Origin: Paraspadella gotoi
Lineage: Eukaryota > Animalia > Chaetognatha
Reading direction: 5' to 3'
NCBI GenBank assembly: GCA_051294375.1
Contig: CM119267.1
Coordinates: forward strand, 7,544,683 to 7,608,682
DNA: 64,000 nucleotides
Shown: piece after piece, positions 713 through 60,292 of the stretch
How positions within the stretch are numbered: the first letter of the stretch is position 1
Layout: each line of letters starts with the position of its first letter
Translations under genes and position numbers: made by a program
The notes under the pieces: generated by a model
Database searches by the model: none
Told to the model about the DNA's origin: nothing
The model's input: only the letters and a program-made list of their open reading frames with translations

Positions 713-891
713 CGTAAGGGAGGGCGAGGTTCTCGGCTAGGGGAATGAGGCTATATTTATCGTCCGTTTATGTCCAGTTTGTGGTTGTAGCGCATCGAAG
801 GAACTTAAAACTTGATCGTTAAAACTGTAAAATAAAAAATTTAATAAACAATTGTGAAAGGCTCAGAACGCCCATGCGAGCGCACTGTGGA

Positions 892-1639
892 TCAATTCTT
901 GATCTCCAGATAACGAGGCTGGGGTTTGGCCACTTTGCGGAACTGTTTCATCAAAGAAACGGGACACTGAACCTCGCACCACGAGTACGGAACCATGACA
1001 TGGCCGTCGGGGGAGTAAGCGACGACGACACCAAGTTCGTTTTCGGCCGTTGACAAGAGGTAAGCGTGAGCGTCGCCCAGAGACAAGACGCGGGCCACGA
1101 TCAGATCAGTCGGCTGGAAACATTTGTGGATCTCCACCTTGTCCTTCTCCGTGGCTCGAACATCCTCTTTCCGTACGAGGGCCCTGAAAGAGTCCGTTGC
1201 CGAAGCGCCGTCTACGCTAACGATCGAGCATTTGGCAAAGCGGGAGTTGATGGAAGTGACGCGAGCGATCACGATCGAGCCGACGAAAGGCACGACCGCT
1301 CGTTTTTCCCTGTTAAGAATGCAACTGAATTGGTTTCCTAATTTAAGGAAGCGATTTCTTGATTAAAAGAAACGGTTGGAAGCAAAACTGCACCCTCCAC
1401 ATCTTTCACCTCTCTACTGTTATCTCAAGAACGTGACTTCCGTTCCGCCTCGGGGTCGATCGATCCTCGGGGGCTTCCAGCCGCGGCTCAAGCCGTTTGA
1501 CGGCGAGTCGACCCCCCAAACTCGAGTAAATATAGCCTTGATGCTCATAACTTCCTTGTCCTGACGAATAGGGTTCAGTCGACCGACAAAGACGTTGTCC
1601 CGGCAACACGACCCTATTTACCAACAGATTGTCATTCAT
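892..1639 (-). CDS. EXOSC1: exosome complex component CSL4 (2 exons)
   Basis: VVLPGQRL..GQGSYEHQGYIYSSL N-terminus; S1 domain (PFVGSIVIARV, RKEDVRATEKDKVEIHKCFQPTDLIVARVLSLGD); zinc-ribbon end RKVAKP. Confidence 0.95.
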
Positions 1640-1711
1640 AGCGAGAAGCGGTTAACTTGAAACAAAACAAAAAATTGGTTTTATCACAGCAACATGGGAA
1701 CATCAGAAACG

Positions 1712-4154
1712 TTAGCTGTTAACGTCAGAAGATTCTTCTTCCTCTCCCTCCTTTTCTCCGTTCAACTCTCTGAACACAAAGCTAATCTCGAAAAAATCCC
1801 CGGGCGCCGTAGCGTTCACGTATTTCGTGAATCTTTCTGTGTCTCTCTCGCGAAAGACCAACACCAATGCGTTGTGACGCGGTTTCATCGTCAACAGCGG
1901 CTCCTCGTCGTCGGCGGCTGCGTAGACGGTGGCGCCGCCGTGGCGTTCCGTGTCCCACGCGGCGTCGCCACCGACAAAGAGAGTCAAGTCTAAAACGCTA
2001 GTCTCTCGCGTGGAAGAAGAAAGATCGCCCAGAAGAGAATAACAGCCCCGACGCCATTGGCGAATCTCTAGGTCGCAAGTAGGCGGGGTATTCGATGATG
2101 ATATTTCGTTGTCCGCAGTTTTTATTTTCTTAGCGGTCGGTTCCGAATCGTCTTCGTTATCTTCCAAATCCTCATCGTCGGCGGAGTCAGAGTTTTGACT
2201 ATGGTCTTTGGTCGAAGGCGATCGGGTTTTGGGCGAAAGGTCGCCGACTTCGTCGTCGTCCCCCTGGTCGCTCCCTTCAGAGTCGCTATCCTCCATCTCC
2301 ACTTCATCCTCCTCTTCTTCAACCTCCGGGTGCAGCTTTAGTCCAGTCAAGTGCGAGAGAAGGAAAAACATTTCTTCGGAGCGAAAAACGTCGAGGAGTT
2401 GTTTGAGCAGGGGAGTGGCGTCTGAAGGATTCAGGGAAAGATAGCGGCGCCGATTGGCGGGACCGAGGAATCGCCATGAAGCCGAGAAGGAACTAAAAAA
2501 AAATTAACGTATTATAGGAAGCTCGTCCTAACTTTTTAGCAATGCCCAAATTACACATGTACCTCTCTCTCAATTCTTCTAACAAGTCGACGATCTTTTC
2601 CTCGAAAACGAACTCCTCCACTTGTAACTCGGAGGTTTTCACGAATTTTCGTTTGAAAGATTTGGCCAACGAGGGTTCGAAAAATATCGGCGAAATCCAA
2701 TCGGAAATCTCGGGACGAGTCATCGTTGTTGTCGATGGTAACCACGGTAACGAGGGAATCTTTTCTTGTGGATGTCTCGGCGGTCGTTCGGCGGGAGAAC
2801 CGTGAAACCAACCACTCAGGGAGAGGCGTAACTTGTCCTAAAAGAAGTGAGACTTAATTTTTTGCAACAAAGGTATTCAATCAAATCGAATGGTTCACCT
2901 CGGCCAAGACTTCCGCGACTTGATGAAAAGAGGAAGCGCCGACGGGAAAGAAGGCGAACGAGTTAGCGACTGGAAGGAGGGATCGGACAACCTCGGCGGG
3001 TTCGCCACGAGCGTCGACGGAAAACAGGTCCAATGCTCCTCCGTCTACGGACAACCAATTGGGCGGCACCAGATAGTAGATGAAAGCCACGCGTCGACCT
3101 TTATGTATTATTGTTTTACAAACCCTATATCAATTTACTAATACAAAAGGGAACGCCGGAGTACCAACGTATTTATAAAACGAACCTTCAAGCTCGTCGT
3201 CGTGACACAATAAATGGTCGCCCTTTTCGTATCTTCCACAGAAAAGATCTACTTCGTCGGAGAGCGAAATACCCGTGATTTCTGCGACGAGGCTCTTTAC
3301 ACGAGTTGTCAGGATCGACTTGAACTGATTCAGGTGAGGAAATCTCTCGGGATTCGGAATAGAAGTTTTTATCAAGTCGCTCGTCTGGAAGGGAATGAGA
3401 TGAGGACAAATGAAAAAGATATTTCATTCACGTAAAACTTTTTTCCTTTGCAAAATTAACCTGATAAAAGTGATAAAGGTCATTGCTCTTTTCCCCGAAT
3501 TCCAACTCAAGAAGTTCATCCCTGAACTTTTCCAAAAACGAGTATTCGTTTATTTCGGTTGCCTGGAACAACACGAACCCTTCGTTACTTGAAAAATGTT
3601 AAAAATCAAGAAGGTCCTTCTTAATAAGGAACACAAATTGATAATACAAAGTATCAAGCGAGTCTAACTTGAACGAGATTGAAAAACCTTCCAACGGTGA
3701 AAGGGTGATGGTGGAGTTCCATGTTCGTCGTTTTATCGCCTTCGTCGAACCCCACGGTCCTTCCGTTGGCTACAGCGTCTCGCAAAGAGAGTAGGACATC
3801 GGGCTGCTCCAAAGAAGGATTCATCCTCAAGGTGGAGACGGTGGTTTCCTGCGGAGACGAAGCTCGCTGGAAAAAAAATTTTGAATTTTAAACGTTCGCC
3901 GTCGAACGAAGCCACGGAAAATTAATTTACTTCGACTCGAGCACTTTTAACACCGGAAATTCTCGAAGATTTTCCCTTGGCCAGACCTTTGCCTTTTGCA
4001 GGCGAGTCCTTTGAAGTCCCTAAATGACAAATATTAACTGTTAAGACATACATATGGCCGAACATTTGAATTTTGTAAAATCTAAATAGTTACCTTTTTT
4101 GTGTCCCGACTGCTCCTCCCCGCGGACATCGTAATCACTTTGCTGCTTAGTCAT
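1712..4154 (-). CDS. OGFOD1: prolyl 3-hydroxylase OGFOD1/Tpa1
   Basis: [43 protein letters not shown] 2OG-Fe(II) motifs; C-terminal FLLLSHLTGL, RQWRRGCYSL, LVFRERDTERFTKYVN. Confidence 0.92.
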
Positions 4155-4278
4155 TTCTTAAAAAAGAACCATCAGAAATACAATTAATTACACGTTTAAA
4201 CTTAACGGTATATAATTCAGACTAGAGGGGGAAAAAGCTTGACTAATAAAAAGTATTAGCAAATTTAAAAAAAAAAAA

Positions 4279-5281
4279 TCAAAAATGAAGAAATTCCTCG
4301 TCTTTCCCCGAATCCTCAATTCCCCCTTCCGACTTTTTCGGGTGCATCTCTTCTCTGTGTTGAAGGAGACTCTTCCGACTGGCGAAGATGGAGATCGACG
4401 AGCATCGGCCGCACATGAATTGGCGGTGAACGCTCTCCACGTGCCGTTTGATGTTTCTCACTTTTCTAAAACACAGAGGACACTCGACTCTTTCTTTGTG
4501 AATCAGTTCGTGAGAAATTCTGACGCTGCTGTCTTGGAAAGCCTTGGGACAGTATCGACATTTGTAGGGACGGTTTCCAGTGTGATAGTTGGTGTGTATC
4601 TGCGAAAAGAGAGACTCTTTTATCACGTCCGACGGAACATAAGAAATCTTTCCTGTTACTCACCCGCAACGACCCCTTGCGACTCGTGGCGTAATTGCAC
4701 CAGGCACACTTGTACGGCTTCGGGTCCCGCTTTTCAACGTCGACCACGATCACGTCCTCGATGTTGGGCGGCGTCTTGTTGGCGATGGCGAGCCGACGCT
4801 GCTCCAGCCACTCCTCAGAAGGAACAAACTCCGGCTCCTGCTTGATGATGAGGGGAGTTGGCGAGGAGGTAGTGGAGGGGTGGATGGGAGAAGAGGTAGT
4901 GTCGGGCGGAGGGGGCGAAGAGGATGTGGGATCAATGTTGTTCGATTCGAGTTGACGTCGATGTCGTTCGAATAAATCGCGCTTTGAGAAGCAGTCAATC
5001 TCGTTCTCTTCAATGGATTCATCGTAACTCTTGACATCGTTCTTGCATCGTCGACTTCGCTTCTTTCTCGAGGGCGTTGAAGACGCAACGTCCAGCTCCG
5101 GTTTAGTGTCGAAATTGTCGCCCTCGATGTCACAGACTTCCCTTTCACCCCGACTCAGAAAAGGTTCGATAATTATTCGGTTCTCCGGGTGTTCAACAAA
5201 CATCCGCACGCCTCTTAACAGACCCTCGCGCTGAAACACGCCGAGTATTTTGAGAAACAATCTGTCCAGATTGACCGCCAT
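4279..5281 (-). CDS. C2H2 zinc-finger protein (2 exons)
   Basis: Spliced KPYKCAWCNYATSRKGSLR|IHTNYHTGNRPYKCRYCPKAF..H..H, followed by CPLC..H..H and CGRC fingers. Confidence 0.85.
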
Positions 5282-5390
5282 GTTTTTTTTGCTTAAAATT
5301 TAACAAATATGATCATCACAGTAGAATAATAAATAATTACGTAACAGCAATACTAATAATGATTAAAGAGCAATGAAAGAACGAAAGAAA

Positions 5391-8300
5391 CTAAGTTGTT
5401 CTTTGAGCTTCTCTCTGACCGGCGCACATTTCTTCGAAAAAACGAGAGACAGCCGAGGCGCTGTCGACGCAACCGTCAAAATTCGAGGTCGAGACAAAAG
5501 CGTCTCCGGCTAGAATCAAGGGCGGCGTCCTGCAGACCACCAAACAGCCGGGCACGCCTTCGTACGGGCGATGGACCTGAAAGCGACATTTGAGTATATG
5601 TTAGTTAGATTAAACTAGGTACATTTTCCCCATTCTTTCTTCTTGAAATCCCATTTTTTTCAAATTTGGTTTCTCTTCTTACTTGGGAGCATCTCCACCG
5701 CAAGCACTTCACAAAAAGGGGATCAGCGGATTTTAAAAAGGGTACTCTTTCTGACAAACGATCCATGACGATCTTTTTGATCTAAATGAAGTCGAAAGAA
5801 AGAGTGAAAATTTTTTTATCAGCGATGTAAATAATTATAGATTCACCAAATCACCTCGTCCATATCCTTTTCAATATTTTCTAGGCCAAATGGAACGGTA
5901 GTGTGAACGACGATTGAAGTTCCATCTTTGCTCTGACGAAAAAAAAAATAGACGGGTCAGTGTCCTGGACCTTAAAGAAAGTACGACACGTCTTGATGCA
6001 TTGAAGTGTAGTGGATGAATTTGTGAATTATTTAAAATGAGATTGAGTTCATAAATTTCATTTGCATATTGTCGTGTTCTGATTAAGTTTTGATCAATTT
6101 TCATTCTATTGCCATGAAGGTTTATAATTGATATTTTCCAATGGCAAATGATTATGTTTGTTTGTGATTCAATTAATAGCTAAATAATTAATGATTTTAT
6201 TATCATATTTACTTAATTATACTTTTATGACTTTTCTATATTTAGTAAGAAAGAATTATCCTTTAGTCTAGGATTACAAGGGTGTCGGATTGAACCACTA
6301 TATTTCAACACAAGCAATTGCTATTCTTTCACAGGTTTATACTTAAAATACATTGCAACACATAGGAGTAGTAGCCAATAGATTAATAACATGCAATTTA
6401 TGGTTCCAAATGGAACCGGGATTCTTCATGGTTCTTCCCCACCAACAAAGTGAGCATCTGCTCTGCAAACGCGACATCTCCCGAGAGAAAAACGAAGAGG
6501 AAACCTCTTCCCCGCCTTCTCTTCCCCCTCCCGTACGCTACCTCAGTACGCCGACACGAGACAGAATCACTCGTAACCAAGCAAACCAAGAGGGGGGAAT
6601 CCCGCGAAGACTTCCGGTGAAGTGCCACGCCCACTTGACCGGACGTCGTAGAAGGGGGGGATGAGAAACCGCAAAAAACCAGTCCATGGACGAAAACCAG
6701 GTCTGGAGAAACTGACGGCCGGACGAAGCAACGGCCGAAAGAGCTGTCGGGCGATCAGTCGGCGTCCTTGACGTCGCTGGAGCCCCGCCCCTACGCTTGG
6801 GAGGCGGCGAAGGCTTGCGAGGCCAGTAAGGACGGCGAGCGGGACTACGCGGACTGCCACGCCCACGCTTGCGGCTAACAGAACAGGCGCAATAGTGTGG
6901 CGCCCCGGAGCGGAGAAGCGAAGAATGGAACGCTTGAGTGACGTCTGTGGAGCGGTCTCCGAAAAAGAACGACGTGGAGGGCGGAGAACTGGACAGAACT
7001 GTCTTGAAATCCGAAGAGGCAGCGTCGACAACAAAGGCCGAGACTCGGAGAGGGCCCGAGCGAAGGGCCTCAACCATGAGGCGGAGAGCGTCAGCACAGA
7101 AAGGACAGCATGAGCGGACGCTCCGGCATCTCTCATGATGCGCTCAAAAGCCTTGAAAGCGCGCGTCGTCTTGGAGTCCTTCCGAACGGCGTCGAACTGA
7201 GCGGCAAGGCAACTCTCGAGCAGGAGGACGAAAATCCGCCGGCGAAGAGACATCCGACCAGCGCCGGAAACGCGTCTTGGCGGAAAGCACGTCCCACGAC
7301 GGAAAAGAACGTCGTCCTGGCCAACTCTGCGCAAGAACCTCAAATGCTGAAGGACCCACTCCGAAGGCTGTACAGAAGCACGACGAGACAAGAAGTTGTC
7401 AAACCCCTCAGCAGACTCTTCAGAGGAGGAACCCTCCTCTGATCCGGAAACGGAGGCGTCGTCGTCGACTCGCGCAGATGGGGCTCGACGAGGAAGGCGT
7501 GACAGTGTCACCCTCTCGGAGCGTGAAGGCCGATCCGCCGCCGAAGAGGCCACCAAAGAACGCGAAGACTCCAAGTCGCTGGCGTACAACGAAGACCGAC
7601 AAAGAACGGCGAAATGGCGAACAGAGGCGTCCAAGAACCATGAAGAAAACGTACATGGAAAAAAGAGAAATCATTGAAAAATGACAGTCTCAAAAAAAAA
7701 ACCCCAAAAAAACACCCCACCAAACAAGACAAGCGAGCCTGAGCCGCCCTCCACCACCGTGGTGCCAGGGGTGGACGGTGGGTGGTTGTTGGTGGGGAAG
7801 AACCATGAAGAATCCCGGTTCCATTTGGAACCATAAATTCTATCATGTTGTTCTTCCCACCAACAAAGTGAGCCTGTAACAAGACCAGGTGAAGGCCCGA
7901 CAAAAAACAAACAAAGTCGAGTGAGGTGGGGCACAGGAGGAAAACCCCTCTGTACGCCGAATGTACGCCAAAAAAAGGCGAAAAAAAAAAAAAAAAAAAC
8001 GAAAAGAGAAGAACTCACTGCCGAAGACTCTCCAACTCGGAATGAGACGAGCGGCGAAACTCCTAAAATTCGCGACGAACGCTAGAGAGAGCGTTGCTAA
8101 TTTGGAGAAGAACTGCCTCCATCTGAGAGGGCATGACTTTGACCCGATCAGAACAGCCCGGAATGGCTGGCGGTGGAGGCGGCGGCGAAAGCGGCGGCGG
8201 AAGAGACATGAGGGTAGTCGAGTTGAAGAACACGCGCCTCAGTCCAAAAAACGGAGAGTACTGGACAAACAAGGGGGCCGAAAACATAGTTCTTCCCCCC

Positions 8301-10220
8301 TGCAGCCGTACTGTGCGCACTGGGCAAACGAGAGGGCCGAGTCACAGCTCTTCCCTCCGCAGCCGCGCAGGGTGCGTCGAGGGCAAGCGAAAGGGCCGAG
8401 TCAAGGCTCTTCCCTCCGAAGTCACGCACAACGAAGACGAAAAAGATGGCGGTCGCGAAGAGAAAACTTCAAACCGCCACGTGTTGAAGAATATCTGTAT
8501 TCTGAACTCCAAAAAAAGAGAAACGAAAAAATATGCAGAATTATTCAACAAAAATAATCAAAAATATTTTCGAAAAAAACCGGGAGACTGAGCGCAAAAG
8601 CGCGAACAGAAGAAGTGATTCTGTCTCGTGTCGGCGTACTGAGGTAGCGTACGGGAGGGGGAAGAGAAGGCGGGGAAGAGGAGGTTTCCTCTTCGTTTTT
8701 CTCTCGGGAGATGTCGCGTTTGCAGAGCAGATGCTCACTTTGTTGGTGGGGAAGAACAACATGATAGAATTTCTATCCTTTCATAGGTCTATACTTGAAA
8801 TACATTGCAAGCCTAATTATCTCGCTCATTCCTCTTACCAAGAGGTCTGCCAAGTAGCCTTCAAACCAGTTTATGCTATTCATTCTCTACTGAACTTATA
8901 TAAACCGATGTTATAAATTATTAGGATTTATTATTTATTATTTCTTAAACGAAATATAGAGGTAAGGATGATGTTATACATCGGCACACAACCGAAATCC
9001 CCTTTCGCTCTAATTTTCTCCAGCTGTAATACCTGAACGCCGCGCTTTTTGGGATCGACCGCGACATATCTAATGACGGGGTCGTCGTCGATGTACCTCG
9101 CGACCCAGTCCTCAGCATCGACATCCACTTCGGGTCCGAACCAAGCGGCGACGGCGTAGCGGGAAGAGTAGACGACGCGGCGAAGTTTGTGGCCGACGTC
9201 GTCCACGGAGGAATCGAGGATTTCGGGAAGGTCGCCCCCGATCTCGAGAAGATTGCGAATTGGCGTCGTGAGCACCAAGGAGGAAAAAGAGTCGGATTCT
9301 CCGTCTTCGCTCTTTACGCTCCAACTAGGGAATTGACCATTTGTCAAAAAGTTTTAATAGGAAGAAATTCAATGACCAAGTGTCAATTTTTAGAATAAAT
9401 ATATGAGAAAGATACATACACATAGTTAATGTTTACATGGGATCTAGCGGATAAAGCTCAACAACAAAATTGTGTTACCACGAGGTTTTTACCGACCTTT
9501 GACCGTCAGCACTCAAGGAGACGTCGACTATTTTCTTGTTAAAGCCAAGTTGGACGTTGGTTGCGGAGCCGAGGAAATGCTTAACAATAGAGGAGGATCC
9601 GTTGACGGCGACAAAATGGCCAGAGTCATCTGAGTTGATTGATGGCAACGTCATTAGTCAATAGGCGAAACGGACCAAATCAAGTTATTCACAAATTTAA
9701 ACTTCACAAAAGTATTTGAAACTACTAAATTTTTGAGCTGGGAACTACTGTAAAACGGCTTGTCACCTTTTTCACCGGCGAATTTGTCTCCTTTGATGAC
9801 GCCCCTCAGCGGCATCAACACGCCTAAAAACGTCAACGAAAACGTGAGTGAATAGAGTCCGAAAAAATTCGCAAGCTCACTTACATCATCGCACCAGCGC
9901 CTTGAAGCTCTCGGTAAATCTTTCTGTGAAGCTCGATCCCGCGGGGCTCCCACTGCTTCTCAACAGGCGTGAAGTACTGCGCGCCGAGATCTGCGGTGAC
10001 AAAACTTTCCGCAGCGCGCGCCGTGCTCATCCGTCCGCCGGCGCCACGCGCTTTGTCCCAAATCGAGATAGACCTTTGGGCTCCGCTAATAAAAGGGATG
10101 AAAGAAAAGTTATGTTATATTTATCCAAGAAAAGAAAAATTACCTATTTTCAACGCGGGACAAAAAGTTTGCGCACAGAGCGCCGGTGATCCCTGCCCCA
10201 CCGATCAATATTCGATCCAT
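5391..10220 (-). CDS. RNLS: renalase-like FAD-dependent oxidase; its large intron (5933-9030) contains a DIRS element
   Basis: MDRILIGGAGITG Rossmann motif; YSSRYAV, YIDDDPVIRYVAVD; 3' exons SIVVHTTVPFG, KCLRWRCSQ, LILAGDAF..SNFDGCVDSA; TAG at 5393-5391. Confidence 0.9.
6395..8772 (-). mobile_element. non-autonomous DIRS-1-type (tyrosine-recombinase class) retrotransposon
   Basis: Inverted terminal repeats 6395-6571 / 8614-8772 with non-identical outer ends, both bounded by AATTT. Segment 7786-7873 is the exact complement of the right end joined to the left end across AATTT, i.e. an internal complementary region (ICR). Frameshifted gag-like minus-strand ORFs at 6538-7634. No RT or recombinase seen. 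Confidence 0.85.
8263..8418. repeat. three imperfect ~59-bp tandem units inside the DIRS element
   Basis: GG(A/G)CAA.C.A..GGGCCGA...CTCTTCCC.CCGCAGCCG-like units start at about 8263, 8322 and 8381. Confidence 0.7.
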
Positions 10221-10641
10221 GGTTAATGTTTTTCGTTTAAAATCTGAAAAACAAGTTCAAACTTGAAGCAGAAACACATTAAAATCTTCAAAAACTATGA
10301 CCCAAATTCAGTAAAAATCCTTTTAAACATTCTAACACAAGGCATCTTGGCTCGAATTAATATCAAATAGGTGAAGAAACATGAAATTCTCAGTATAAAT
10401 GACTAGAAATACAAAGCACCATGAAAAAGCGATTAAAAACATCAATATCTACTTTTAAAACTAAAGTAGCTGAAAAGCCATAAAAAAGCGATGAAAAAAA
10501 AATAAGAACGAACTGCATTCATCCATCTTAGCTTTTCTAAACTCGGGTTTGGAGAAAATTGCTATCTCCATCGCTAGTAAGCGACGACCCATTTAAAAAC
10601 ATAAATAACATGGTTTTCTAAATAATAAGGCAATTTTAATT

Positions 10642-13600: not shown

Positions 13601-14458
13601 GCGCATGACCCGGCGGGGGATAATGATGCGCCGGACCAGGATGAGCAAAGGGCGCACCCCCAGGAGGTCCGTAAGGCTGCATAGGAGCGCCAGTCGTTGC
13701 GTACGGAGGTGGCGCCGGATGAGCTTGGTTATATGGCTGTGACCCTTGCGACGCGAATCCCCCAGAGGGCGGAGGAGGCCGGGATGGAGGCAGGTGGGGG
13801 CGGGGCTGCGCCGTGGGAGCAGACGAGGCGCCACTTTTTTGAAAAATCAGGTGAAGACGCATCTTTCCCGAGCGTTTGGACAAATCATACCACCCGTCGG
13901 GAGAAAGGCGACCCTCAAGTACCCATTGCACGGGGATCTTGACCTGATCCACCAGAGATTCCGTGTTAAGATTCGCGATATTTTTGTTACGATCTTGTAT
14001 CCTGAGATTGTAGTTTTGGTAAATTAAAGGAGTAAAGTAAATTAAAGCGCGATTCTCGGAAAATTTATAAAAAGAATACTAGTACTCACTTAATAACCAA
14101 ATCAGAGGCATCATGACAAAGTAAAAAGGTAAAACTTTGATCCCATGCTGGATTTTGGTGGTCGGCGTGGATCCAATCCGACGTGGATCTAAGCAAAGGG
14201 ATTTCTTATAAGCTTGTTTAAACAATGTTTATAAAATGGGCCCCGTCCTCATCTAAGACAAATGTTTAATTTTTTTAAGTAAACTAACCTTAAATGTATC
14301 TCGTCAAGATAAATTTTTGCATAGGCTTTGATTGAGGAGTTGACGCCCAAGGTCTTTCGCGATATTAGCCCAAAAGGATCAACGCTGCCAGAGTTTTGCG
14401 AGGGCAGATTGGCCGCCTGGATTACCCTCACCGTTAACACCCCCTGGATGAAAGGCAT
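10642..14458 (-). CDS. C2-domain phospholipase D of the plant PLD alpha/beta/gamma/delta type
   Basis: N-terminal C2 ([14 protein letters not shown]) and a Pro-rich linker; [22 protein letters not shown] (HKD1), [40 protein letters not shown] (HKD2), [25 protein letters not shown]. Confidence 0.93.
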
Positions 14459-14697
14459 CGCGTCTCTTTTGATTTTGACCCCCGTTAAACTAAGCCTCGT
14501 TCTCTCCCACGACCAAACTGAAAAAGTGGTTAGACTAGTATTCGATTCCAAAAATGATCTCAAAAAGTATAATGAACGATTTACAAAATCAAACGGACAT
14601 AAAAACTGGCTTGCGGCGGTTAAAAAATATTAAAACCTTGAATGAAAATATCCGAATGATATCGTTCCAGACTTAAGATAATCTCCAAATCGTTCCT

Positions 14698-15921: not shown

Positions 15922-16053
15922 GAAGGTCTCTTTGACTCGAGCTTAGTTGCTAAGGTTCTACAAATAGTAAGTAACAAGGATCTCATATTTTAAGACTAAG
16001 ACAGGAATAGCAAAGTGGAGATAAATGATTCATTCCAAGCAAAGACTGACACG

Positions 16054-30472: not shown

Positions 30473-30647
30473 GTTCGCTGTTAAATCGGTGGGGATTCTC
30501 AGTCACAAACCTTATTTGGGAGAAAACTGAAATCAAACTGAAGACCGACACGGAAAAAAAAATTAGGGTGGGGGAAAAATGGGGGGGACATGGAAGATGG
30601 GGAAAGGCAAAGTTTAACATGGAGAATGACACGAAAATGGAAATAAA

Positions 30648-33282: not shown

Positions 33283-33536
33283 CCTATCGAAAAAAAAGGT
33301 AACGAAATAAAATATAACAACCAACTGCCTGTATATATTTCTAGAAGTAAAATTGAGAGCCTACTACATCGGATCCTTAGAAGCGCCTTGAGGGGGAAAA
33401 CGGGAGAAAAAGGGACCAGAAGCAGAATAAAAATAATCACATTTTGCGAAAAAGTACAAGGCACGTAAATATTTTTTCATAAATTACTGGGGTGAATCAA
33501 AAGAAACAATAAAAAGAAAAACAAAACTCCACGACT

Positions 33537-36087
33537 TTAAAAGTCCATGTCAAAGTATTCGTTCTTCTCCTGAGGCGCAACAACGCTGTTGACCCTCGCC
33601 GGCTGCGGACGATTCGGCGCGGGACGTGGAGGCGAAGCTACTCTGCGTTGCCTGGCGACAGATTCCGTCGAGTTGCCGAAGTCAAAGTCGAATTCGGCGG
33701 AAGCGTCGGAATTCGTGGAAGCAAATCCGTTGATCGCCCGAGTTGAGTTTACGGTGGAGGAAGCGTTGGACTCGGAGGATTCGGGCGGAGCGGAATTCAT
33801 GCTCACGGCCACCAGATCTACAACCATTCTGGAATAATTAATTAATTTTTAAAATTTTTTTTATTAAATGACATTTTATATTAAAACATTACCTCGATGG
33901 ATCTTGGAATTTGTTACGATTTTTCTTGAACCTTTTAAAATTTTTCTTCAACGGATTATGGTTCGCGGGAGCATCGTTCTCCCTCACGTCAAAGGCGGTT
34001 ACCCTCGGTCGTCGCACAACCAGCACCGTTTCCTCCACCATCATCCTGAGTCTTTCCAATCCCGCCTCGTTTTCACTTTTACCACCGAATTTTTTCGCGG
34101 ATCTCGATATCCAACCATCTTCGGATGGGACCCGCGAGTCTTCGACAAATACCTCACGTTTAACGGGAACCGCATTCTCCGAAGCAGTCGTGGCCCGCGA
34201 CTCGAGCGACGTTGATCGGTGCTCACGCGTCGATTCTGATAATTTAACGGCGACTTGGATTTCGGCCTGCGACGAACCGTAATCCTCTTCGTCGAAAGGG
34301 TCGCCCTCGTCGTCTTCGAAATAAGTGGAGATGTCAGCGTCTTCGTCGAGGGTTTTCGACACGGTGGAGGATTCTCCGGACTCAGCGCTCAAATTGGAAC
34401 CGGAATTCGACGTCGTTGTTATCGTTTTGTTACCGGAAAGAGTCGACGCAACACTCGCGTCAGTTCTTTCTCTCACAGCGAATTCCGAAGATTCCGTTTT
34501 GTTTCTTTTGCTCGTGGGTTCTTCCTCCTCGTCTTCGCTGTCAGAAGCCAACAGCCGTTTTAACTGGAACCGCGAAGGTTTTGGATTCGAAGACGATGGA
34601 ACCTTCGTCGCTGGCGCAGAAACAATAGGTTGTTGGGAGGAAGAGGAAACTCCACCCTTTTGAGAATTTAAAGTCTCGAGTGAATTTTTCGAAGAAGGAT
34701 TCTCTGGCGTCAATGGCTCAAAAAGATCAAAGCCTCGTTTCGAAACCGAAACGGCTTCTGCCGGTTTTGACTTTGATTCAGAGGAAAAAGTTTTCACAGC
34801 ATTTGAGTTCGTAGCCATCGCGACTGGTTCAGACAGAGAAAAAGATGGAGAATCTTCGCGATCGCGTTTCGATGAAGACTTCGTCGCTTCAATCGTAGAG
34901 GTCGTCGTTGTCGTCGAGGTCTTCCCCGGTTGGCTGGTCGTTGCCTCGCAGTTTCTCGAACCCCCTCCGCACTGTCCCGACTCGCTCAAGTTCTCTTTCG
35001 TTTCCTCATTCTCCGCTCTCCCCAACGCCGACGACTTCCCTGCTTTTAAGTCCTTCAACGGATCCCCGACCTTTGGATTCGTGAACTTTTCCGCGGAACA
35101 ATAAATAACAGCAAAGCCTATTTCAGGCGTGTCAATCCAGCGCCTGCTGTGACGCCGCAATGTAGGCAGCACTTCCAACGCATGACTCTGCGATGGGTCG
35201 CCCACAGCGGGTTGCATGACGACGACCTCTTCGCGAACGAGAAATTCGGAATTCGGCGCGCCTGTCTCTTTCTCGACGAGCCTCGTTGTGGCGCCTCCCA
35301 TTTCGGCCACAGCGAAACACTTTTTAAACTGTTTCCGGTCAAAGAAGACGAAGGTTTTGCCGGCAAATATTCGGCGTCGTTTTTCGTTTATATCGAAGGA
35401 AAATCCCGTTTTCCCCGCCAATTGAGAGTCAGTCACGGAAGGGAGAAAAGCGGAAACATCGACCATCCCGTCGCCGCCTGCCTCCGCGTCACGAAGACAT
35501 ACCTCCAGGAAATCCGGCGTGACGATGGGCTTGAGGGCGACCATGGCGGATATTGTCTTGATGGTAACGGAGATCGTCTCCATGCAGAGGTGAGTGGAGA
35601 CGTCGCGCCGCCAGTCGGAGATCACGTGGGCTCCGATTCTCAAAGCCGCGGTTCGGACGCGCGCTTTGGAAGCATCGCTGACGGCGGATAGAGAAACGAT
35701 GGTCGTTCGGCGCCGCAGGTAGAATCGAGCGAGGCGGTTACCGCCGAACTCCAACAGGTCTCCCTCTTTCAACGTTCGCGACGTATCCTTGCATGGCACG
35801 CCGTTGACCCAACAACCAAAACGCGACTGATCTCTTAGAGTGACGGCGGAAAGAGCTGGGGGAGACTCTAATCGAGATTCGTCGTGCGAAAAAGTCAATA
35901 TGGCGTGTGAACCGGAAATAGATTCTTCGAAAATACGAACGGGACGATCGCCACGTGGGCTTCGACCGATGACATTATTGACATTGGCTAAAAGCACTAT
36001 CGATTTAGTCAGAGGAAAGTTGGCGTTCCTGGCTCTCGTGGCGATCAGGGGGGAAGCGTATCCATCGTCAGGACAAAGAATCCACAT
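33537..36087 (-). CDS. NBN: nibrin / NBS1
   Basis: FHA (IGR..SISGSHA..DQSRFGCWVN), tandem BRCT (STHLCM..TIKTISA..KPIVTPDF; RRRIFAGKTFVF), MRE11-binding KNFKRFKK, acidic-aromatic C-terminus EYFDMDF. Confidence 0.9.
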
Positions 36088-36217
36088 TCTAAATCTCTAG
36101 CAATTAACTTTCAAAAGCTGTAAAACAACAATTATGAAAAAAAATAAGTATCAAAATCTATTAAATTTTGGTTTAAAAATATTATTCCTAGAAACATATG
36201 CAACAGTTACAGCAAAA

Positions 36218-39200
36218 TCATACGTCATCGGAATGCGATCCGTCTCGCCGGCTCCGCTTTCGTCCGTCCTTTACGAAACAGTAACCCGCAAAAACGGCGA
36301 GGAAAATCAAAAAGCCAAAAACGAGAAACTCGAGCCGACGTCGCGTCGCTTCAAACTCGCGCCACTCCGAGATGTCTGCGAAGCGATTTCTCGCGCCGAG
36401 CGGAAGTTCGAACTGCGACCGAAACGGAAAGAACGTCAGGTAAAAGTCTTGCAAAAGCATACGCACGAGAGGCGCCTCTTTAGAGGCGTGATCAATATTG
36501 TCGTTGAGGCAGACAAACTTCTTCGGGTTGCGCCGAACGTCGTCGAGCTTCTTAAGGACGACGCTGGCGTTGGAGTCGATCATCTTAAAGGCGACGACAT
36601 CGTCGCCGACGACATCGAACGGCCAACGAGTCGAGATCGACTCGGTGGAGAGGTGATCGCGCACGCGGGCGAGTAGGGGAGCGCAAGAGATAAAGAGCGA
36701 CTTGCGGACAGGCGGCATTGAAGGATTGAAATACTTGACGGTGAATGAGGTCGCGGTCGGAGAATCGCGCAAACTCGACGAACAATTGACCAGCATGGCC
36801 TCCATCTCCTCGATCGCCCGTCCGTCCAGCGGATCGGGAAACACCCTCGCGGCCAAAACGCGGAGCTCGCGATCGTCGAGAATTCCATCGAGGTTGATGT
36901 CGAGAGCGTCGAAAATGAACGACGGCGATGAAGAGTTGGACGAAGTTTCCGACATCAAGAAGTAAAAATAGGCGAAGGCGAACTGAAGGTCGTCGGGGCG
37001 GCGGAAGCGATGGGACGAAGTCTCGCGGACTTCGGAGGGAAAGCGACGATGAAGGGCAGAGAGGATGGAGCGCTGAGCCATGTGCGGCATGTGGGCAGGA
37101 ACTGAGTTGGTCAGGAGTTAGAAATAAAAATCTCGGGTCGATGAATGTGAGCCGAAACAATTATCACCTTTGCGAGGCACGAAGCCGTAAGCCCCGTTAA
37201 GGATTCGGTTTGTGTGCTTCAAAGAATCTGCGTACGCCTCCAAGAGGCGGCGACCGGTCGAGACAGTCGTTCCATTCACAAAATTGTCGTCTAACAAAGG
37301 CCTGTATGAAAATTTGACTGGTTTAATAGTAATTCTTTTTTAATTGCGTACGTAGTATAAAAAGTTTTATCTTACTGAGACTCATTCGACAAAATCTCCC
37401 ATACGCCCACGCTCTTCTTTTCCCAAACGCCGAAAACCTCCGCCAATTTTTTTCTAAATCCTTTACGGCTCAGGAACCCCGCGTCCAAGTCTTCCTTTAA
37501 CGCTCGCGCAGACCGCATGACGTCCGCCGGTAGGACGACGACCGATGGCAAAGTCGAGTTCAAAAAGCCGCCCATTCGTTCGGCCGCTTCGAACAGCTCT
37601 GGGCGAATCGAGGAGGAATTGAAGCGGCGCGGGAAGAGGTCGGCGAAGGCAAAGTTCGCATATGGCTGCGCGAAAGGGTTGGAGGAAGATTCCGTAGCGG
37701 TAGGCGTGAGGTGTGAGGCGAATGAGTCGGTGTATTGGGTAGACTCCAAATCGGAAAACATAGAAACGTTGAAAGAGAAGGAGGACAAATCGGAGGGGAC
37801 CGCACTTCTATCGGCCGACAACGAGTCTCGCATCAGATGGAATGGACGCAATTGGTCGGGTGTCTGAAAACAGGAATAAGAACGAATAAGAAAGAGGACT
37901 CAATTTAATAAATATAAATATACTACCGTCGAAGTAACTGTGGGACGAGTCTCTGACAAAGGATTTTTCTTTGGTTCGGAGATTTGAAGGTTCACTTTCA
38001 TAGAAACGTCCGTCCGATTTTGGTAGAAAACAACGAAGATGAATTTGAACTGAGAGCGACAAGAGGATGTTAGGCTACGCCAGTCGTTCCTTTTTGATAA
38101 ACTAATCTACCTGGACTGCGACCGAAACGGTTCTAATCCAATCGTCGCGTTCGGTTTCGTAGGAGGCTTCGACGATTTTGTGTTCATCGTCTGGAAAGAA
38201 AGAACTCCAATCGAAGGTAGCAAAGACTGCGCCTTAAAAGTGGAAAAAGACGCAAGTCAGGAAACAAAAAGTTAAAGCAAGAAGCTACGAGGCTTTTTCA
38301 TATCTTACGAACCTTGCGGAATGAAATAACTTTGGACTTCTCTCCGCAGCCTGGTCGCCTTCGGCCCATGACGCCGAACGTCATCGAGGCCGCAGTCGCC
38401 GGCGTCAAACCCGCATTCGGCCACATTGCAATTGGCGTCGCAATACCGGTCGGCGAGCCAGGAATTGGCGCAGCCTTTGTGGCAGTGATCCGCAGACGGC
38501 AACGAAGCGCCGTCGTGACTAGAGTAAGGATCGGGACGACCAAGGTATGGATGAACCGGTTGATTCCCCAGACAATCTCCTCCATCCCAGTCGCAATCGG
38601 AAAAGTTGCAAGCTGAAAAAGAAACAAAGCGAAATCAGTAATTTTCGTCACAAGCGAAGTTTTTTTTTCTCAATTTTGCTCACGTTTGTCGCAGTACGTG
38701 TCTTTAATCCAGGACTGCGGACATCCTTCTCGACAACCGGGCACCGGCCAGGATAGAAAAACTTTCTGACCACCCGCAGTCGTGAAAAAGTCGTCGGGCC
38801 AAACGGGAAGTCCGAAAAACACGTCGTCGTTAAGATAAATAAACTTTTCTGACAAGCCTGTCGGGAGTTAATTAGTTCGCAAATTAAGAGAACTGAATAA
38901 ACTGGACAAATGATATTTTCACAGAGTCCCTCACCCGGGATGCGATGAAGGTGCATCTCGATAGCAGGAGAGCTGAACGTTGGAAGGTGTTCCGACGCGT
39001 TGTCTTTCCCGAAGATGTCCCCGTGAGTGACGAGCGTGAGGCGGGGGTTTTCGAGGTTGAGCCACCACGGGATTTGACCGTTGGTCACAATGAAGACTCG
39101 GCGAATCTTCGTTATAAATACGTGAGGTTGAGTGTAGTAATTATTTTTAATGAAGAAACCCGCAATAAATAAAAAATAAGTAACAGTTGACAATCAAATA

Positions 39201-40731
39201 CATGAAAAAGAATATTCTTTATTCCATACCCAAGGAGCATTTTTCTCCAATGACCGAAGAGAAAACCTCAACTCGTCGTTGTCTCGGAACCGAGAGGGCG
39301 CGGTGTCGTCAGCGTTGGCGCGCGGTTGTGGCGCCGACAGAAGCAAGCGCGGGTAAGAGATCGATGGACGACGACCGGAAATAGTGACATTTTCCGTCTG
39401 GGAAGTAACGACGACGCTTTTAATTATTTTAACGATTTTATTTATTTTTTTTTTTAATTTAAGACCTGTTTCATAAAGTCTTTAGCGTCGGAAGAGTTGC
39501 GGAATTTTAGAAGCAGGCATTCCTGATCTTGATGAAAAGTCGCCACTTTTATTTTTTCACGGGATACGTCGGGGAGAAGGTCAACGATTTCCTGCGCTAA
39601 TTTTAGCGCGACGGTGAAATGAAATCCTTAATTCGATGCCTCATTCCAACTCCATATTCTGACTTTCTTCTTCACCTGAGCTAAACGTTCGCACGAAACC
39701 GGAAATCAAAATCCACGAGGTCATCCGACGAGAGAGAAATCTGTCGTCGTCCCCGCCGCTGACGAGGAGGAGGCCGACGTCGATGGAATGATTCGCCATC
39801 GAGGGATAAGACTGGAAAGTTAGAAGCAAACACGCGTTTAAATCACTCCCAAATCTCTTAATTCATTAATAATATTTTTAATCTATAGTTCGTCGTTCGT
39901 CTCGCCTTTATCGCCGTCAAAACAGCGTTGGTCTCGCCCTCCTTAGCAACGATCACCGTCGCTGTCTCGTTGTCCGTTCTAGTCTCGTTGCGATGGAAAA
40001 CTTCTTCGACCAACGAAGGATCTAGGAAAGCAAGGGAGAGCATCCGGGGTCGAACGACGAAGACGCGCGTCTGCGAAAGGCGTAAGTCGCGTTTAAATAA
40101 CTCAAATCTCATCAGAATACCCATCGAGCTCGAGACCTCGAGGCATTCCGCGTCCTCGGGACATTTCAGACTCTTTCCATCACGGTCAGTTTCCTCCGAA
40201 GTGCTATTCGCTGTCGAACGTTTAGTCCACTCTGCGAGGGAGAGGAGCAGCTTCGGGTCTGACCCGTTGACCCAAGTATACACGGCATCGATCGGCGTCG
40301 GGGCGCAGAGACGTTTGGAGAAAGAGGCGCCGGCAAGGTTGTCCGCAGAAGAGCTGAAGAGATAGGAAAAAATTTGATATGATAGATTTTTGACAGTATC
40401 AGCATTCAGTTTCAGTATCGAGACGAGTATATGCTCGCTCGTGCCTGTATAAAATGCTCCCAAAAGCCGAGAATGGAGGACCTATTTTTAGGATCAGTCC
40501 TTCGCCCTTATTTCGACAAACTCACTCGAAAATATTTCTCCGCCAAGACGCCTCGACAAACTCTCGGCCGACGATGGCAAAACTCGCCAGTCCGAAGAAG
40601 GTGAGGCAGCAAGTGAGGCACAAGCAGATAATAAGGCACTTGTTTTTCGAGGCCAAGTCTAGAATTCGTCTCTGCATCATTTTGCAAATGGAGACGCAGC
40701 AACGGCGAACGAAGCGACGGCAGTCGGTCAT
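36218..40731 (-). CDS. GNPTAB: GlcNAc-1-phosphotransferase alpha/beta precursor
   Basis: Stealth motifs [66 protein letters not shown]; Notch/LNR repeats; EF-hand; N- and C-terminal TM helices. Confidence 0.95.
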
Positions 40732-40929
40732 TGCCGACCATATCGACGTCGTCGTTCCTCAAAGACTAGAAGCAAAAACGTCTTGAAAGTATTAAACAGA
40801 AGAAGAAAAGAACAAAACAGTAAAACGGGGGGAAGGGGGGGGGCGATCCAGCACGGAGAAAGGGAGAAGACGAAGACGCCACGGTTGCTTGGTATCGACA
40901 AGGAGAGAAAAAAAAGTTTGTGATAACCG

Positions 40930-42659
40930 TCAACTAGAGTCTTTCAAAGCAGTTTTATCAAGACTCTCTTTATCTTCCTCCTCTTCCCACGCTTCCTCCG
41001 ACCAATCGTCGAAGTCGTTGAAATCTTCGTCCGCCGCCGCCTTCTTCGTCCGCGCGCGGATGGAGAGTGGATCGAACTCTTCGCCTGAAAATAAGGACGA
41101 AAAATTATTAACAAATCAAAAGGGGAATATGCTTTTAGTTAGAATTTGGCAAGTATAAATTATTAACATTATGTATGAAAGAAGATGTAGTTCAATCTCA
41201 TTTGCGTACGGTATTAGTTAGCTTCTATCAATGATTCAAAAACGTGAAGATAATCCCTGAATTAAACAGCACAGTAGCCTAACATTTTAACCGACCTAAA
41301 CACCAGAGAGACTCCAGGTCGTAGCTCTCCCTGGTCTCCTCCATAAAGAGATGCAGGACGAGGTTCCCCATGTCGGCGACGAGCCAGTCGCCAGCCTCCA
41401 ATCCCTCCACCGTCACGTGACGGTCTTTCTTGCCCCTCTTCGCCTTGTGGAGTTTTTTAATGTATTCCATGGTGGACTTGAGGTGACGAAGGGAAAACCC
41501 GTTACCGATGACGAAGTAGTCTGAATAAAAGATGAGAGTCTCAGTTGAATCAATAAACGCCTTCAATATATAGGGAAGGAACTTTTGATACAACCAAGAA
41601 TGAGATTGAGTTCATCAATCTCATTTGCATATTGTCGTATTGACATTGACTTGTCATAAATTCTGTTCCTGTGTCATTTCATGTTCTCATTTCACGAATT
41701 CACTTTTGTCATTAGTGTAGCTATTGATGATAGTAATTGATTAGAGAGTTTGGGACATTTATTAATAATAATTATCAATTAAACTAACTTAGAAATATTC
41801 TTATTGGAACCCACTCTTAGGTATTTCAATTATAGTTTAAAGCTTCAGGATGAATTCTATGCTTTGACTTGGAACAGAGTTGGCTTCCAATATGGCAGTC
41901 CCATCCTCTCTGGTCTTAGTTCTTACTTATTGGGTTAGGAATTATGTTAAAAGCATTTTATATATGTTTATTAATAAAGACTTTCTTTCCTCCATAGGGT
42001 ATCTATGCTTATGACTTACTTCCCTTAAGCTAGCTATATGCTTCAAGCATTCTACCACTGAACCATAGCAAGTTAGCATCTCTTATTCTAGCTAAGTTTA
42101 CTGTTATTTTAGGACCAAATAGCTCGCTTACAAATACACAACTTCCAAGTTTTTACGATGAAAATTTACAACGATCGAAAACCCAAAAGGTTAACTTAAA
42201 GAAAAGAAAATTACTTCATCGCAAAACAACTAATACACCCTCACCCGCGTAATTCATTTCGGCCGGAAGTCGAATCACGCAAATGTCTGTGACATTTTCG
42301 AACTTCAAGACGTCGACGATTTCCTCGAGATCGAAGACGCCTTCGACGCCGCGTCGGCCCAACATCTCCATCCAACGGACGTCGCGTTCATCGTCGCCGT
42401 CTTTTCGCCAGACCTCCTCGGTGAAGGACTCGTAGTATTCCTTGAGCAGCGCTTCCTGGTCGACCGTCACGTCCGCGGGCTCAATGGCGTCTGGCGGAGG
42501 CGATGACGCCGAGTCAGCGTTTCCGGTGGAATAGCGCAGATTAGAAAGCAGCACCGAGGTTCCGCGCGCGGCGATGGAGAAGGCATCGGGAAGAGTTTTC
42601 GGTGGGAGGGTCGTCGTCGGCAACGACCCGCTTAATCTCAGAAGTGCGGTCCTTAACAT
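40930..42659 (-). CDS. MALSU1: mitoribosome assembly factor (RsfS/Iojap family)
   Basis: Transit-like N-terminus; RRGVEGVFDLEEIVDVLKFENVTDICVI, DYFVIGNGFSLRHL, DWLVADMGNLVLHLFMEETRESYDLESLW. Confidence 0.93.
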
Positions 42660-43784
42660 CTGAAAACCAAATAGGCGGATCTAACCACAAGTCGAGGAAC
42701 CAATTTTGTGAGAGGAGAGTAAAATCGAATATCGGTTCCTTTGGCAATCGTACGTATTTACAAACGTGATTGAAGAAACTAAGGATCGCTAGAAACGACA
42801 AGACGTGCCCGGCCGCTTCCGCAATGTGTCAAATGTGATAAATTTGAAGCTGATGAATTTCATCAATTATCGATGTTTTTGAAGCGATATTTTTTTTCGC
42901 CAAAACCTCTGCTAGCGAGTTTCATCTTCCATCTTCCTCTTCATCCTCCTCCTCCTTTCTCGCCATGTTCCTTCTCAGCGCCTCGTGGCTTCTTTTCTGC
43001 CAGAAGCAAAGCCAACGTCCCTTTTGTTTTTTTTCTGGGAAGGATACCATATTAAATAGATTAAATATTAAATATATATTAAATATCAAAACTTAGACGC
43101 GAATTAAAATAAATATTTCATGAGAGTCTTGAATAAAGCTTTGAATAAATTTGCGATGAAGGCATAAAACTTGCCGTGACTCTTCCAAATAGTGAAAAAT
43201 AGCCTTATGAATTGTACTTTAGCTGCAAAGATCGGAGGGTCGTCTATCGTCTTTCTGCTCTTGACCAAAATCACAGGAGGCCAGAGGACCGAGCGAGCTC
43301 GATCACAATCCACGGATCCACACATTCATATCAGTTTGACTTCGCCAGTTTTAGTCGACCATTATTAATCCGGCATCGAGGCGTAAGTCGAGAAATAATA
43401 ACAAATTTATCAAATCTCACAAAATGGCTATATTATAGAATATAGACCTTCAATGAGTAGTTGCTTCGTAAGTTTCTTTACTTATTCTGACTAAGCTAGC
43501 TGTATTACCTGAAGATTCAGAAAATAACTAAATTGAAAACTCCCAATATAGTATTTATCACTATAAATAAATAATTAGCTACGCGATTAGACTGTCAACA
43601 ACATAACAATGAATTTATTGTAAAAATGTAAACGATTTCAAAATTTTACTCGAACTCTGTTGCAACAAAGAAAGTGTCAACAATTCAACAAATTTCATAT
43701 AACATGATTTACAAAATAAATTGCATTGGTGAATAATTCGTATAATTGGTAGTATCTAAAAATTCTACGTATAATTTTATTATT

Positions 43785-60225: not shown

Positions 60226-60292
<67 letters not shown>

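Follow-up and report, generated by a model that had tools for sequence, protein, structure and literature searches.

How do closely packed animal genes on one strand obtain separate messages, and, above all, how is the 3′ end of an upstream message formed in an animal operon that has no AATAAA hexamer there? The latter is the main question raised by the locus studied here. In the window (the whole stretch of DNA that was analysed, 64,000 nt), the minus strand carries every one of the 23 annotated genes, and these are tightly packed: 13 of the 22 stop-to-ATG spacers measure 260 nt or less (12 are below 250 nt), and from MALSU1 to MRG15 there are 18 co-oriented genes in 42 kb with a maximum stop-to-start gap of 756 nt. 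According to our analysis, these are packed genes, probably of a chaetognath, whose clusters would be operons, the downstream members receiving their 5′ ends by spliced-leader (SL) trans-splicing at polypyrimidine-AG acceptors; we give this reading a probability of roughly 0.85. The putative operons, labelled A to D, are listed in Table 1. Co-transcription of operon A is putative, and operon D may continue beyond the end of the window. A Pfam search of two mobile-element-like inserts in the window gave no match.

A chaetognath origin of the window is likely, judging from one marker. Its RPS13 is identical to that of Spadella cephaloptera at 148 of 151 residues (119–135 in 13 other named animals), and the clade that it forms with the chaetognath has a support of 99/95 for this marker. 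In the published chaetognath system, the leader is 36 nt long and ends in AAA, and RPS13 relatives are trans-spliced (PMC2481426, PMC2566580, PMC12460157); the sequence of the leader ends in TTGTTTAAA. All six chaetognath-type RPS13 sequences with an N-terminal extension start with a leader-like translation, which is found in none of 47 others. In these relatives from other chaetognaths, the translated leader ends 25–37 nt before the ATG, and one copy is identical to SL3.2. A metagenome scan for the SL pattern yielded at least 120 loci among the matches listed. One of them (L054), from another chaetognath, has an exact SL2.0 exon (35/35) with a GTATGT donor and a second copy; the remaining 119 of the loci listed had leader scores of 20 or less and were treated as chance matches. 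None of the at least 120 loci listed resembled the window proteins, and a metagenome scan for the chaetognath-type RPS13 motif returned no matches. The window itself yielded neither an SL-like sequence nor a hit to an Rfam family. Among 281 relatives of EXOSC1, GRHPR and WDR70, none showed a leader translation within its first 40 residues; the closest ones inspected start at Met, which makes this negative uninformative.

The preliminary description of this DNA had named seven polypyrimidine-AG motifs before start codons (EXOSC1, OGFOD1, 5281, RNLS, 23390, WDR70 and MALSU1). All are present as written, with AG-to-ATG distances of 16, 2, 10, 23, 2, 1 and 0 nt, and they rank between the 14th and 87th percentiles of intron acceptors. 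The scoring matrix was built on introns of the window, 70 in all, of which 10 have RNA support and 60 are predicted; the gene-model script is rough, with MALSU1 unsolved and several long introns wrong, and was used solely for acceptor examples. In 18 of 23 genes, the top-scoring AG at most 70 nt from the ATG reaches 5 or more, a level attained in 45% of the 543 non-coding windows examined (P about 0.001 by shuffling). The start Met of WDR70 is backed by a relative (P0267). No acceptor-like AG was found within 70 nt before the ATG of HM13, SETD1 and PIWI.

Evidence on transcripts comes from run X1, the one run out of three that contains the stretch, no run with it being recorded as RNA; the material consists of assembled contigs, in which 5′ ends are not visible and precursor and mature RNA are indistinguishable. 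The RNA alignment covers positions 14200–18945, and all seven AGs named above lie outside it. A spliced X1 contig of 4417 nt spans 18940 to 14289 and continues into the next PLD exon. It covers five genes, contains one inter-gene splice, and all 11 of its joints are GT-AG; it starts, at its 5′ end, within the long spacer that precedes GRHPR and not at an AG. The inter-gene joint runs from 16669 to 16876, with 206 letters skipped, CT..AC borders and one letter of overlap. Its acceptor scores 8.9 and its donor 1.3, the splice is out of the SFT2 frame, and the predicted product has 210 aa. The last exon of an upstream gene, REX1BD, can thus itself serve as a donor, and by this joint REX1BD and SFT2 are co-transcribed. 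The single contig further suggests that all five operon C genes share one precursor.

Table 1. Coordinates of putative operons, candidate acceptors and other features of the window.
Feature	Position	Strand	Remarks
Operon A (putative): MALSU1, GNPTAB, NBN, WDR70, zinc-finger gene 30472	25727..42659	-	spacers 202, 130, 254, 175 nt; Pfam
Operon B (putative): ferrochelatase, uncharacterised gene 23390	21852..25394	-	spacer 249 nt; predicted
Operon C (putative): GRHPR-like, REX1BD, SFT2/Got1, aldo-keto reductase (AKR), phospholipase D (PLD)	10642..18940	-	spacers 85, 103, 168, 239 nt; X1 contig; Pfam
Operon D (putative): RNLS, zinc finger 5281, OGFOD1, EXOSC1, MRG15/MSL3-like	461..10220	-	spacers 109, 124, 72, 179 nt; predicted
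Candidate acceptor AG, EXOSC1	1656..1657	-	16 nt from ATG; score 12.0, 87th percentile; spacer without donor
Candidate acceptor AG, OGFOD1	4157..4158	-	2 nt from ATG; score 6.2
Candidate acceptor AG, gene 5281	5292..5293	-	10 nt from ATG; score 7.8
Candidate acceptor AG, RNLS	10244..10245	-	23 nt from ATG; score 10.5
Candidate acceptor AG, PLD	14518..14519	-	59 nt from ATG; score 6.8; inside colinear X1 piece 14289-15047
Candidate acceptor AG, AKR	15958..15959	-	36 nt from in-frame ATG 15921; score 7.4; inside colinear X1 piece 15668-16534
Candidate acceptor AG, SFT2	16777..16778	-	22 nt from ATG; score 6.6
Candidate acceptor AG, GRHPR (operon C head)	18814..18815	-	7 nt from ATG; score 8.0; inside colinear X1 piece 18558-18940
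Two candidate acceptors, gene 23390	23393..23447	-	named AG 2 nt from ATG, score 4.8; stronger AG 55 nt, score 13.3
Candidate acceptors, WDR70	33284..33342	-	named AG 1 nt from ATG, score 6.6; stronger AG 58 nt, score 8.8
Candidate acceptor AG, NBN	36118..36119	-	30 nt from ATG; score 9.5
Candidate acceptor AG, MALSU1 (operon A head)	42660..42661	-	adjoins ATG; score 6.0; upstream spacer 1125 nt
Candidate acceptor AG, RPS13	62647..62648	-	22 nt from ATG; score 12.7; outside the range of the preliminary description
Read-through intron, last REX1BD codons to SFT2 exon 1	16671..16876	-	GT-AG; deletes spacer 16755-16857
AATAAA after HM13	19174..19179	-	upstream of X1 contig 5′ end; candidate end of the unit preceding operon C
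AATAAA after gene 23390	21619..21624	-	candidate end of operon B
C-run, MALSU1/GNPTAB spacer	40827..40843	-	ends 45-53 nt before best AG; post hoc
C-run, NBN/WDR70 spacer	33392..33396	-	51 nt before best AG; post hoc
C-runs, WDR70/30472 spacer	30570..30587	-	43-54 nt before best AG; post hoc
C-runs, REX1BD/SFT2 spacer	16808..16818	-	31-37 nt before best AG; post hoc
C-run, 5281/OGFOD1 spacer	4227..4231	-	70 nt before best AG; post hoc

The proposal of SL trans-splicing made in the preliminary description can be judged on this basis. It is favoured by the precedent in the phylum, by the leaders of RPS13 relatives, whose distance from the ATG agrees, and by co-transcription seen as a spliced read-through. 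It is countered in part by the X1 contig, in which 5′ ends are invisible and which runs colinearly through the acceptors of GRHPR, AKR and PLD, without a loose end, the colinear passage over the AKR and PLD sites being the pattern expected if the proposal were wrong; no leader was seen in this single contig. Colinearity without a leader would also fit genes that each have their own promoter, the AGs then belonging to T-rich 5′UTRs or marking the ends of cis-spliced 5′UTR introns, and the contig being a product of leaky read-through combined with UTR overlap. Trans-splicing is reported to leave out about half of the genes of chaetognaths (PMC12460157), and donor-like GTs are available above some genes. 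The claim that an upstream donor would have little room is correct for EXOSC1, OGFOD1 and 5281, which have no usable one, and fails for RNLS, 23390, WDR70 and MALSU1, where spacers of 249–1125 nt contain donor-like GTs scoring 4.6–9.4; the spacer above PLD has one as well. However, the PLD donor-like GT and AG are left unspliced in the X1 contig, spacers of 72–130 nt would have to accommodate a 3′UTR, a promoter and a 5′UTR, and neither the excess of AGs over shuffles nor the leaders on RPS13 relatives would be expected, so we consider separate promoters very unlikely. We rate as highly improbable that some junctions remain dicistronic in the mRNA and are translated by re-initiation or leaky scanning. 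The foremost candidate is GRHPR/REX1BD, across which the contig is colinear and where no good acceptor AG was found between an out-of-frame upstream ATG and the REX1BD start; yet contigs blur precursor and mature RNA, weak acceptors are possibly used, and published chaetognath operons are described as resolved by trans-splicing (Piovani et al.; PMC12460157). SL trans-splicing of the operon genes is well supported by indirect evidence.

Under the operon reading, one polymerase would transcribe several genes, as demonstrated for REX1BD and SFT2, suggested for five genes and predicted elsewhere. A leader of about 36 nt, encoded by an SL RNA gene located elsewhere, would be joined by the spliceosome to the AG that precedes each start codon. 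The 56–196 nt that separate an upstream stop codon from the following AG would contain the end of the upstream message, mostly without AATAAA. Where resolution fails, the precursor could be cis-spliced across the junction to give a chimeric RNA, as was observed once.

The preliminary description had reported AATAAA to be missing from spacers 1640–1711, 4155–4278, 5282–5390, 16755–16857 and 36088–36217; the coordinates and the absence were both confirmed. None of the 13 short spacers (260 nt or less) contains the hexamer, and shuffles predict 1.06 copies in their 2089 nt (P=0.33). This absence taken alone is within chance; only the contrast between short and long spacers exceeds it: four to five of the nine long spacers have AATAAA (Fisher P 0.005–0.03 against the short ones), and with repeat-derived copies removed the first 160 nt give 0/13 short versus 4/9 long (P=0.017). 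With a cut-off of 400 nt, the contrast is gone (2/17 versus 2/5, P=0.21). In the RPS13/SETD1 spacer, AATAAA lies 34 nt before a strong AG.

Tentatively, and with somewhat less than even odds, we suggest that the downstream acceptor determines upstream cleavage or is coupled to it, by analogy with tunicates and trypanosomes. It is possible, albeit doubtful, that AATAAA is missing merely as a consequence of spacers that are short and poor in A and of weak variant signals, so that no special mechanism would be needed. The short spacers contain 24% A, several have variant hexamers, about one copy would be expected anyway, and the contrast shifts with the cut-off. Nevertheless, early AATAAA in long spacers, repeat-derived copies included, occurs in 5/9 versus 1.64 by shuffling (P=0.008), only 2 of the 17 spacers from MALSU1 downward contain the hexamer, and tunicate operons show the same gap (PMC1488885). 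We hold equally unlikely that trans-splicing is real while upstream 3′ ends are formed without involvement of the acceptor, through ordinary cleavage and polyadenylation directed by a signal other than the hexamer, such as C-runs together with U-rich sequence. C-runs were found in five of the 13 short spacers, ending 31–70 nt before the best AG (0.78 by shuffling), and in 5/70 introns (Fisher 0.007), and alphaCP-bound C-rich elements boost 3′-end processing in mammals (PMC5546720); yet the C-runs were noticed post hoc on 13 spacers and are missing in eight of them.

The fullest version of the acceptor model, namely that operon-internal 3′ ends lack AAUAAA and are set by the acceptor with the help of a C-tract 30–70 nt upstream and perhaps of CTAGTC, and that MALSU1–MRG15 may form one or two units, is a long shot. 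CTAGTC in the spacers could pair with GACTAG downstream of the L054 leader (6-mer pairing P=0.04–0.08; none with 7-mers), and is kept as no more than a lead, because the GACTAG motif may fall outside the mature SL RNA. If acceptor-set ends proved true, they would represent an independent animal origin of acceptor-coupled 3′-end formation besides tunicates.

SL trans-splicing and operons have already been published for chaetognaths, and therefore our finding is mostly ordinary; its core adds further examples of a known system and as such matters little. Similar operons of same-strand housekeeping genes less than 250 nt apart are described from Spadella cephaloptera and Paraspadella gotoi (PMC2481426, PMC2566580, PMC12460157); in the latter, 10,197 of 21,072 genes are trans-spliced and 18% are in operons (PMC12460157). 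In the RPS14–PCNA operon, a poly(A) site is separated by 3 nt from the acceptor that follows; the leader of that system measures 36 nt (PMC2481426). We found no treatment of 3′ ends of chaetognath upstream cistrons without a hexamer, and no analysis of AATAAA or spacer motifs in the available parts of the chaetognath papers (PMC2481426, PMC2566580, PMC12460157). Since Logan contigs merge operon genes and may mask leaders, there is a risk of misleading annotation.

Like the window, Caenorhabditis elegans SL2 operons have short spacers and a polycistronic precursor resolved at the downstream AG, but they need the operon-specific SL2 and a Ur element (PMC7668243, PMC1488885). The Ur motif TAYYTT is not enriched upstream of the acceptors in the window (7/12 versus 6.1 by shuffling, P=0.41), and an operon-specific leader is reported to be absent in chaetognaths (PMC12460157, PMC2481426). 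Trypanosomatids share the long one-strand gene runs, and their polyadenylation sites are set by downstream splicing signals, which is the mechanism put forward in the preliminary description; every mRNA there is trans-spliced, whereas several genes of the window retain AATAAA (PMC9380746, PMC2335281). The tunicates Ciona intestinalis and Oikopleura use, as would apply here, one SL class for all positions (PMC1488885). Most of their upstream cistrons have no AATAAA (in Ciona 16 of 18), comparable to its absence from the short spacers here, and the 3′ end was proposed to be a product of the trans-splicing reaction when the missing hexamer was raised as a question in 2006; however, Ciona operons have no intercistronic DNA (PMC1488885), whereas the stop-to-AG intervals of the window, in which the upstream messages would end, measure 56–196 nt. 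The longest published chaetognath operon has nine genes (PMC12460157), a maximum that would be surpassed if the MALSU1–MRG15 run of 18 co-oriented genes forms one or two units.

We consider the gene clusters of the window to be operons resolved by spliced-leader (SL) trans-splicing, with a probability of about 0.85. Reading of both strands delimited 23 protein-coding genes, all of them (23/23) on the minus strand, with a median intron of about 80 nt in the gene models. Spacer length delimits four putative operons: MALSU1 to 30472, FECH-23390, GRHPR to PLD (operon C), and RNLS to MRG15 (numbers denote genes named by position). The preliminary description had proposed SL trans-splicing at polypyrimidine-AG sites before start codons, and this interpretation is probably correct. 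SL trans-splicing is already established for chaetognaths, and the window is not new in that respect. According to earlier papers, chaetognath leaders are 36 nt long and one operon has three bases from the poly(A) site to the acceptor (PMC2481426); SL genes were located in the 5S cluster (PMC2566580); and about half of the genes are trans-spliced, with 18% in operons, the largest of nine genes, and no operon-specific leader reported (PMC12460157).

The affinity of the window is likely chaetognath, judging by one marker, RPS13, which is identical to that of Spadella cephaloptera at 148/151 positions and to those of 13 other named animals at 119–135/151. In a tree of 18 rows, hand-picked out of 135 hits, it clusters with Spadella and three relatives (support 99/95). 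Pfam backs EXOSC1, OGFOD1, C2H2 fingers, an MSL3-like chromodomain, PLD, aldo-keto reductase, Got1/Sft2, REX1-B, 2-hydroxyacid dehydrogenase, signal peptide peptidase, ferrochelatase, WD40, nibrin, Stealth, RNase H2C, HMG box, SET, RsfS, and Piwi, as well as the Rossmann fold of RNLS. Orthologue names such as WDR70, MALSU1, GNPTAB, and RNLS are presumptive, being taken partly from the preliminary description. The phospholipase D gene (10642–14458) has a long proline-rich N-terminal part, the PLDc motif alone being confirmed; we assume a likeness to plant-type C2-PLD. An intronless 512-aa open reading frame at 21852–23390 has Cys/His-spaced repeats and no Pfam match.

All seven polypyrimidine-AG motifs named previously (before EXOSC1, OGFOD1, 5281, RNLS, 23390, WDR70, and MALSU1) are present, and the observation as a whole is largely real. 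Their description as unpaired applies strictly to EXOSC1, OGFOD1, and 5281, but not to the other four, which have longer spacers with donor-like sites. An acceptor matrix was trained on 70 window introns, 10 of them with RNA joints and 60 from predictions that were in part imperfect. By this matrix, the highest-scoring AG no more than 70 nt from the start scored at least 5 in 18/23 genes and at least 7 in 12/23, against 45 and 23% of 543 overlapping non-coding windows (shuffle P = 0.001 and P = 0.003, respectively). The gene model recovered all 10 RNA-supported introns. SETD1, PIWI, HM13, REX1BD, and AKR fall below a score of 5; AKR reaches it if an upstream in-frame ATG is taken as the start. 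In the 85-nt GRHPR/REX1BD spacer (17448–17532), the acceptor is at best a weak AG, which lies 13 nt past the stop and is followed by an out-of-frame ATG. At 21757 (minus strand), 296 nt before the HM13 ATG, a very strong acceptor (score 12.3) is immediately followed by GTAAAG and then by 10 upstream ATGs; it could regenerate a donor.

Relatives of RPS13 provide evidence of a leader. Chaetognath-type sequences make up 20 of the 135 proteins, and six of the 20 have an N-terminal extension (at least five residues before the canonical start motif; P0011, whose N-terminus does not match this motif, was excluded). A leader-like in-frame translation opens 6/6 of these versus 0/47 other extended RPS13 proteins, and in one of them, P0033, the N-terminus equals the SL3.2 translation over 10 residues. 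In five of these relatives the leader-to-ATG distance is 25 nt, and in the sixth it is 37 nt; the strongest acceptor of the window RPS13 (score 12.7) lies 22 nt before its ATG. No leader translations were found among 281 relatives of EXOSC1, GRHPR, and WDR70. One of the at least 120 loci matched in a metagenome scan for the SL pattern, L054, contains the SL2.0 exon (35/35) followed by a donor, with a second copy upstream (see table), and shows a leader gene of some chaetognath other than that of the window. Similarity between the copies extends from about 70 nt above the leader start to 120 nt below it, and the gene has a fold z of −2.2; no canonical Sm site was seen by eye in the copies, and no Rfam match reached the gathering level.

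Co-transcription was addressed with X1, the single run among three listed that covers this region, available as contigs of presumed RNA origin that contain 0.61 of the words of 14000–23500. One 4417-nt record over 14200–18945, with 11/11 GT-AG joints on the minus strand, runs from its 5′ end at 18940 through GRHPR, REX1BD, SFT2, and AKR into PLD. Three spacers are crossed colinearly, and the fourth is spliced out (16876 to 16671, one-letter overlap). This REX1BD-SFT2 joint requires a single RNA with both genes, and thus co-transcription is shown at that junction; SFT2 is out of frame in the product. Colinear passage through acceptors, which had been named as evidence against trans-splicing, formally occurs here, in a stretch that includes none of the seven named AGs. 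No leader overhang was found at the acceptors along this contig, and contigs cannot reveal transcript starts. Logan contigs are simplified de Bruijn paths (k = 31), reported only above 150 nt (10.1101/2024.07.30.605881), so that short leader branches would presumably be clipped. The contig starts at the head of operon C without extending as far as HM13, the 3′ region of which contains AATAAA. Relative to the window it carries 14 substitutions and two one-letter indels, as from another allele or individual. A TATAA at 18966–18970 (minus strand), 26–30 nt above the contig end, is possibly the operon C promoter; the region is AT-rich, and contig ends are not equivalent to start sites.

As noted previously for the shortest spacers, AATAAA is absent from all 13 spacers of up to 260 nt, but chance alone predicts no more than about one copy (1.06 in shuffles, P = 0.33). 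It occurs within 160 nt past the stop in 5/9 longer spacers (1.64 expected, P = 0.008; Fisher 0.005 versus short, the 260-nt cut being picked post hoc with the data already seen). Two copies of the long spacers sit in a repeat fragment; after removal of repeat copies, the comparison is 0/13 versus 4/9 (P = 0.017), 0/12 versus 4/10 with the published 250-nt rule as cut (P = 0.029), and 2/17 versus 2/5 at 400 nt (P = 0.21). The gap in short spacers is suggestive, not firm. In the RPS13/SETD1 spacer (61345–61721), AATAAA lies 134 nt past the stop, with a strong acceptor 34 nt beyond and a short uORF directly after; this is possibly an operon junction retaining the hexamer. The leader 3′ end AATTTGTTTAAA occurs twice near 61600–61625 in this AT-rich spacer, perhaps by chance.

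That the 3′ ends of upstream operon genes would be tied to the downstream acceptor, as the preliminary description considered possible, is a tentative reading by analogy, held at somewhat less than even odds. Such coupling has precedent outside chaetognaths: AATAAA is absent in 16/18 Ciona operons and also in Oikopleura, the tunicate upstream 3′ end being proposed as a product of trans-splicing (PMC1488885), and coupling is stated for trypanosomatids (PMC9380746, PMC2335281). The chaetognath literature searched, in the main texts and supplements available, yielded no analysis of operon poly(A) signals and no occurrence of "polyadenyl," and the chaetognath papers among the matches listed did not contain AATAAA. 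A separate non-hexamer signal seems somewhat less likely; a post hoc lead in its favor is that runs of at least five C occur in 5/13 short spacers (0.78 in shuffles, P = 0.0006), 5/70 introns (Fisher 0.007 versus short spacers) and 1/9 long spacers (first 260 nt), ending 31–70 nt upstream of the best AG in the short ones. CTAGTC is the top non-homopolymer hexamer, with eight copies in 22 spacers versus 0.86 expected (four in short, 0.29 expected; four in long, 0.59 expected) and one antisense; both enrichments come from the same spacers in which they were first spotted. The absence of any special mechanism we regard as about as likely as a separate signal. A joint reading, in which AAUAAA-less 3′ ends would be set by the acceptor with help from C-tracts and perhaps CTAGTC, within one or two very long units (MALSU1-MRG15), is improbable.

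Spacer hexamer sites in the window and leader gene copies in the metagenome locus L054.
Feature	Coordinates	Strand	Details
CTAGTC sites	61427, 40769, 23587, 21607, 19308, 14538, 10406, 4225	minus	spacer hexamer count
SL RNA gene copies, tandem	L054:215-250 and 910-944		SL2.0 and one-letter variant, GTATGT donors

The window also contains several repeats. An RNLS intron carries an insert (6380–8757) that lacks a Pfam match and has terminal repeats that are inverted and split; we take it to be DIRS-like from this repeat layout. An inverted-end insert in an intron of gene 30472 (26488–28124), also without a Pfam match, is presumably Penelope-like; a 54-nt copy of its end at 19436–19493, in the HM13 3′ region, is the source of two AATAAA. 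One short repeat is shared, at 92–96% likeness, by a Piwi intron (45975–46180) and a SETD1 intron (60129–60393).
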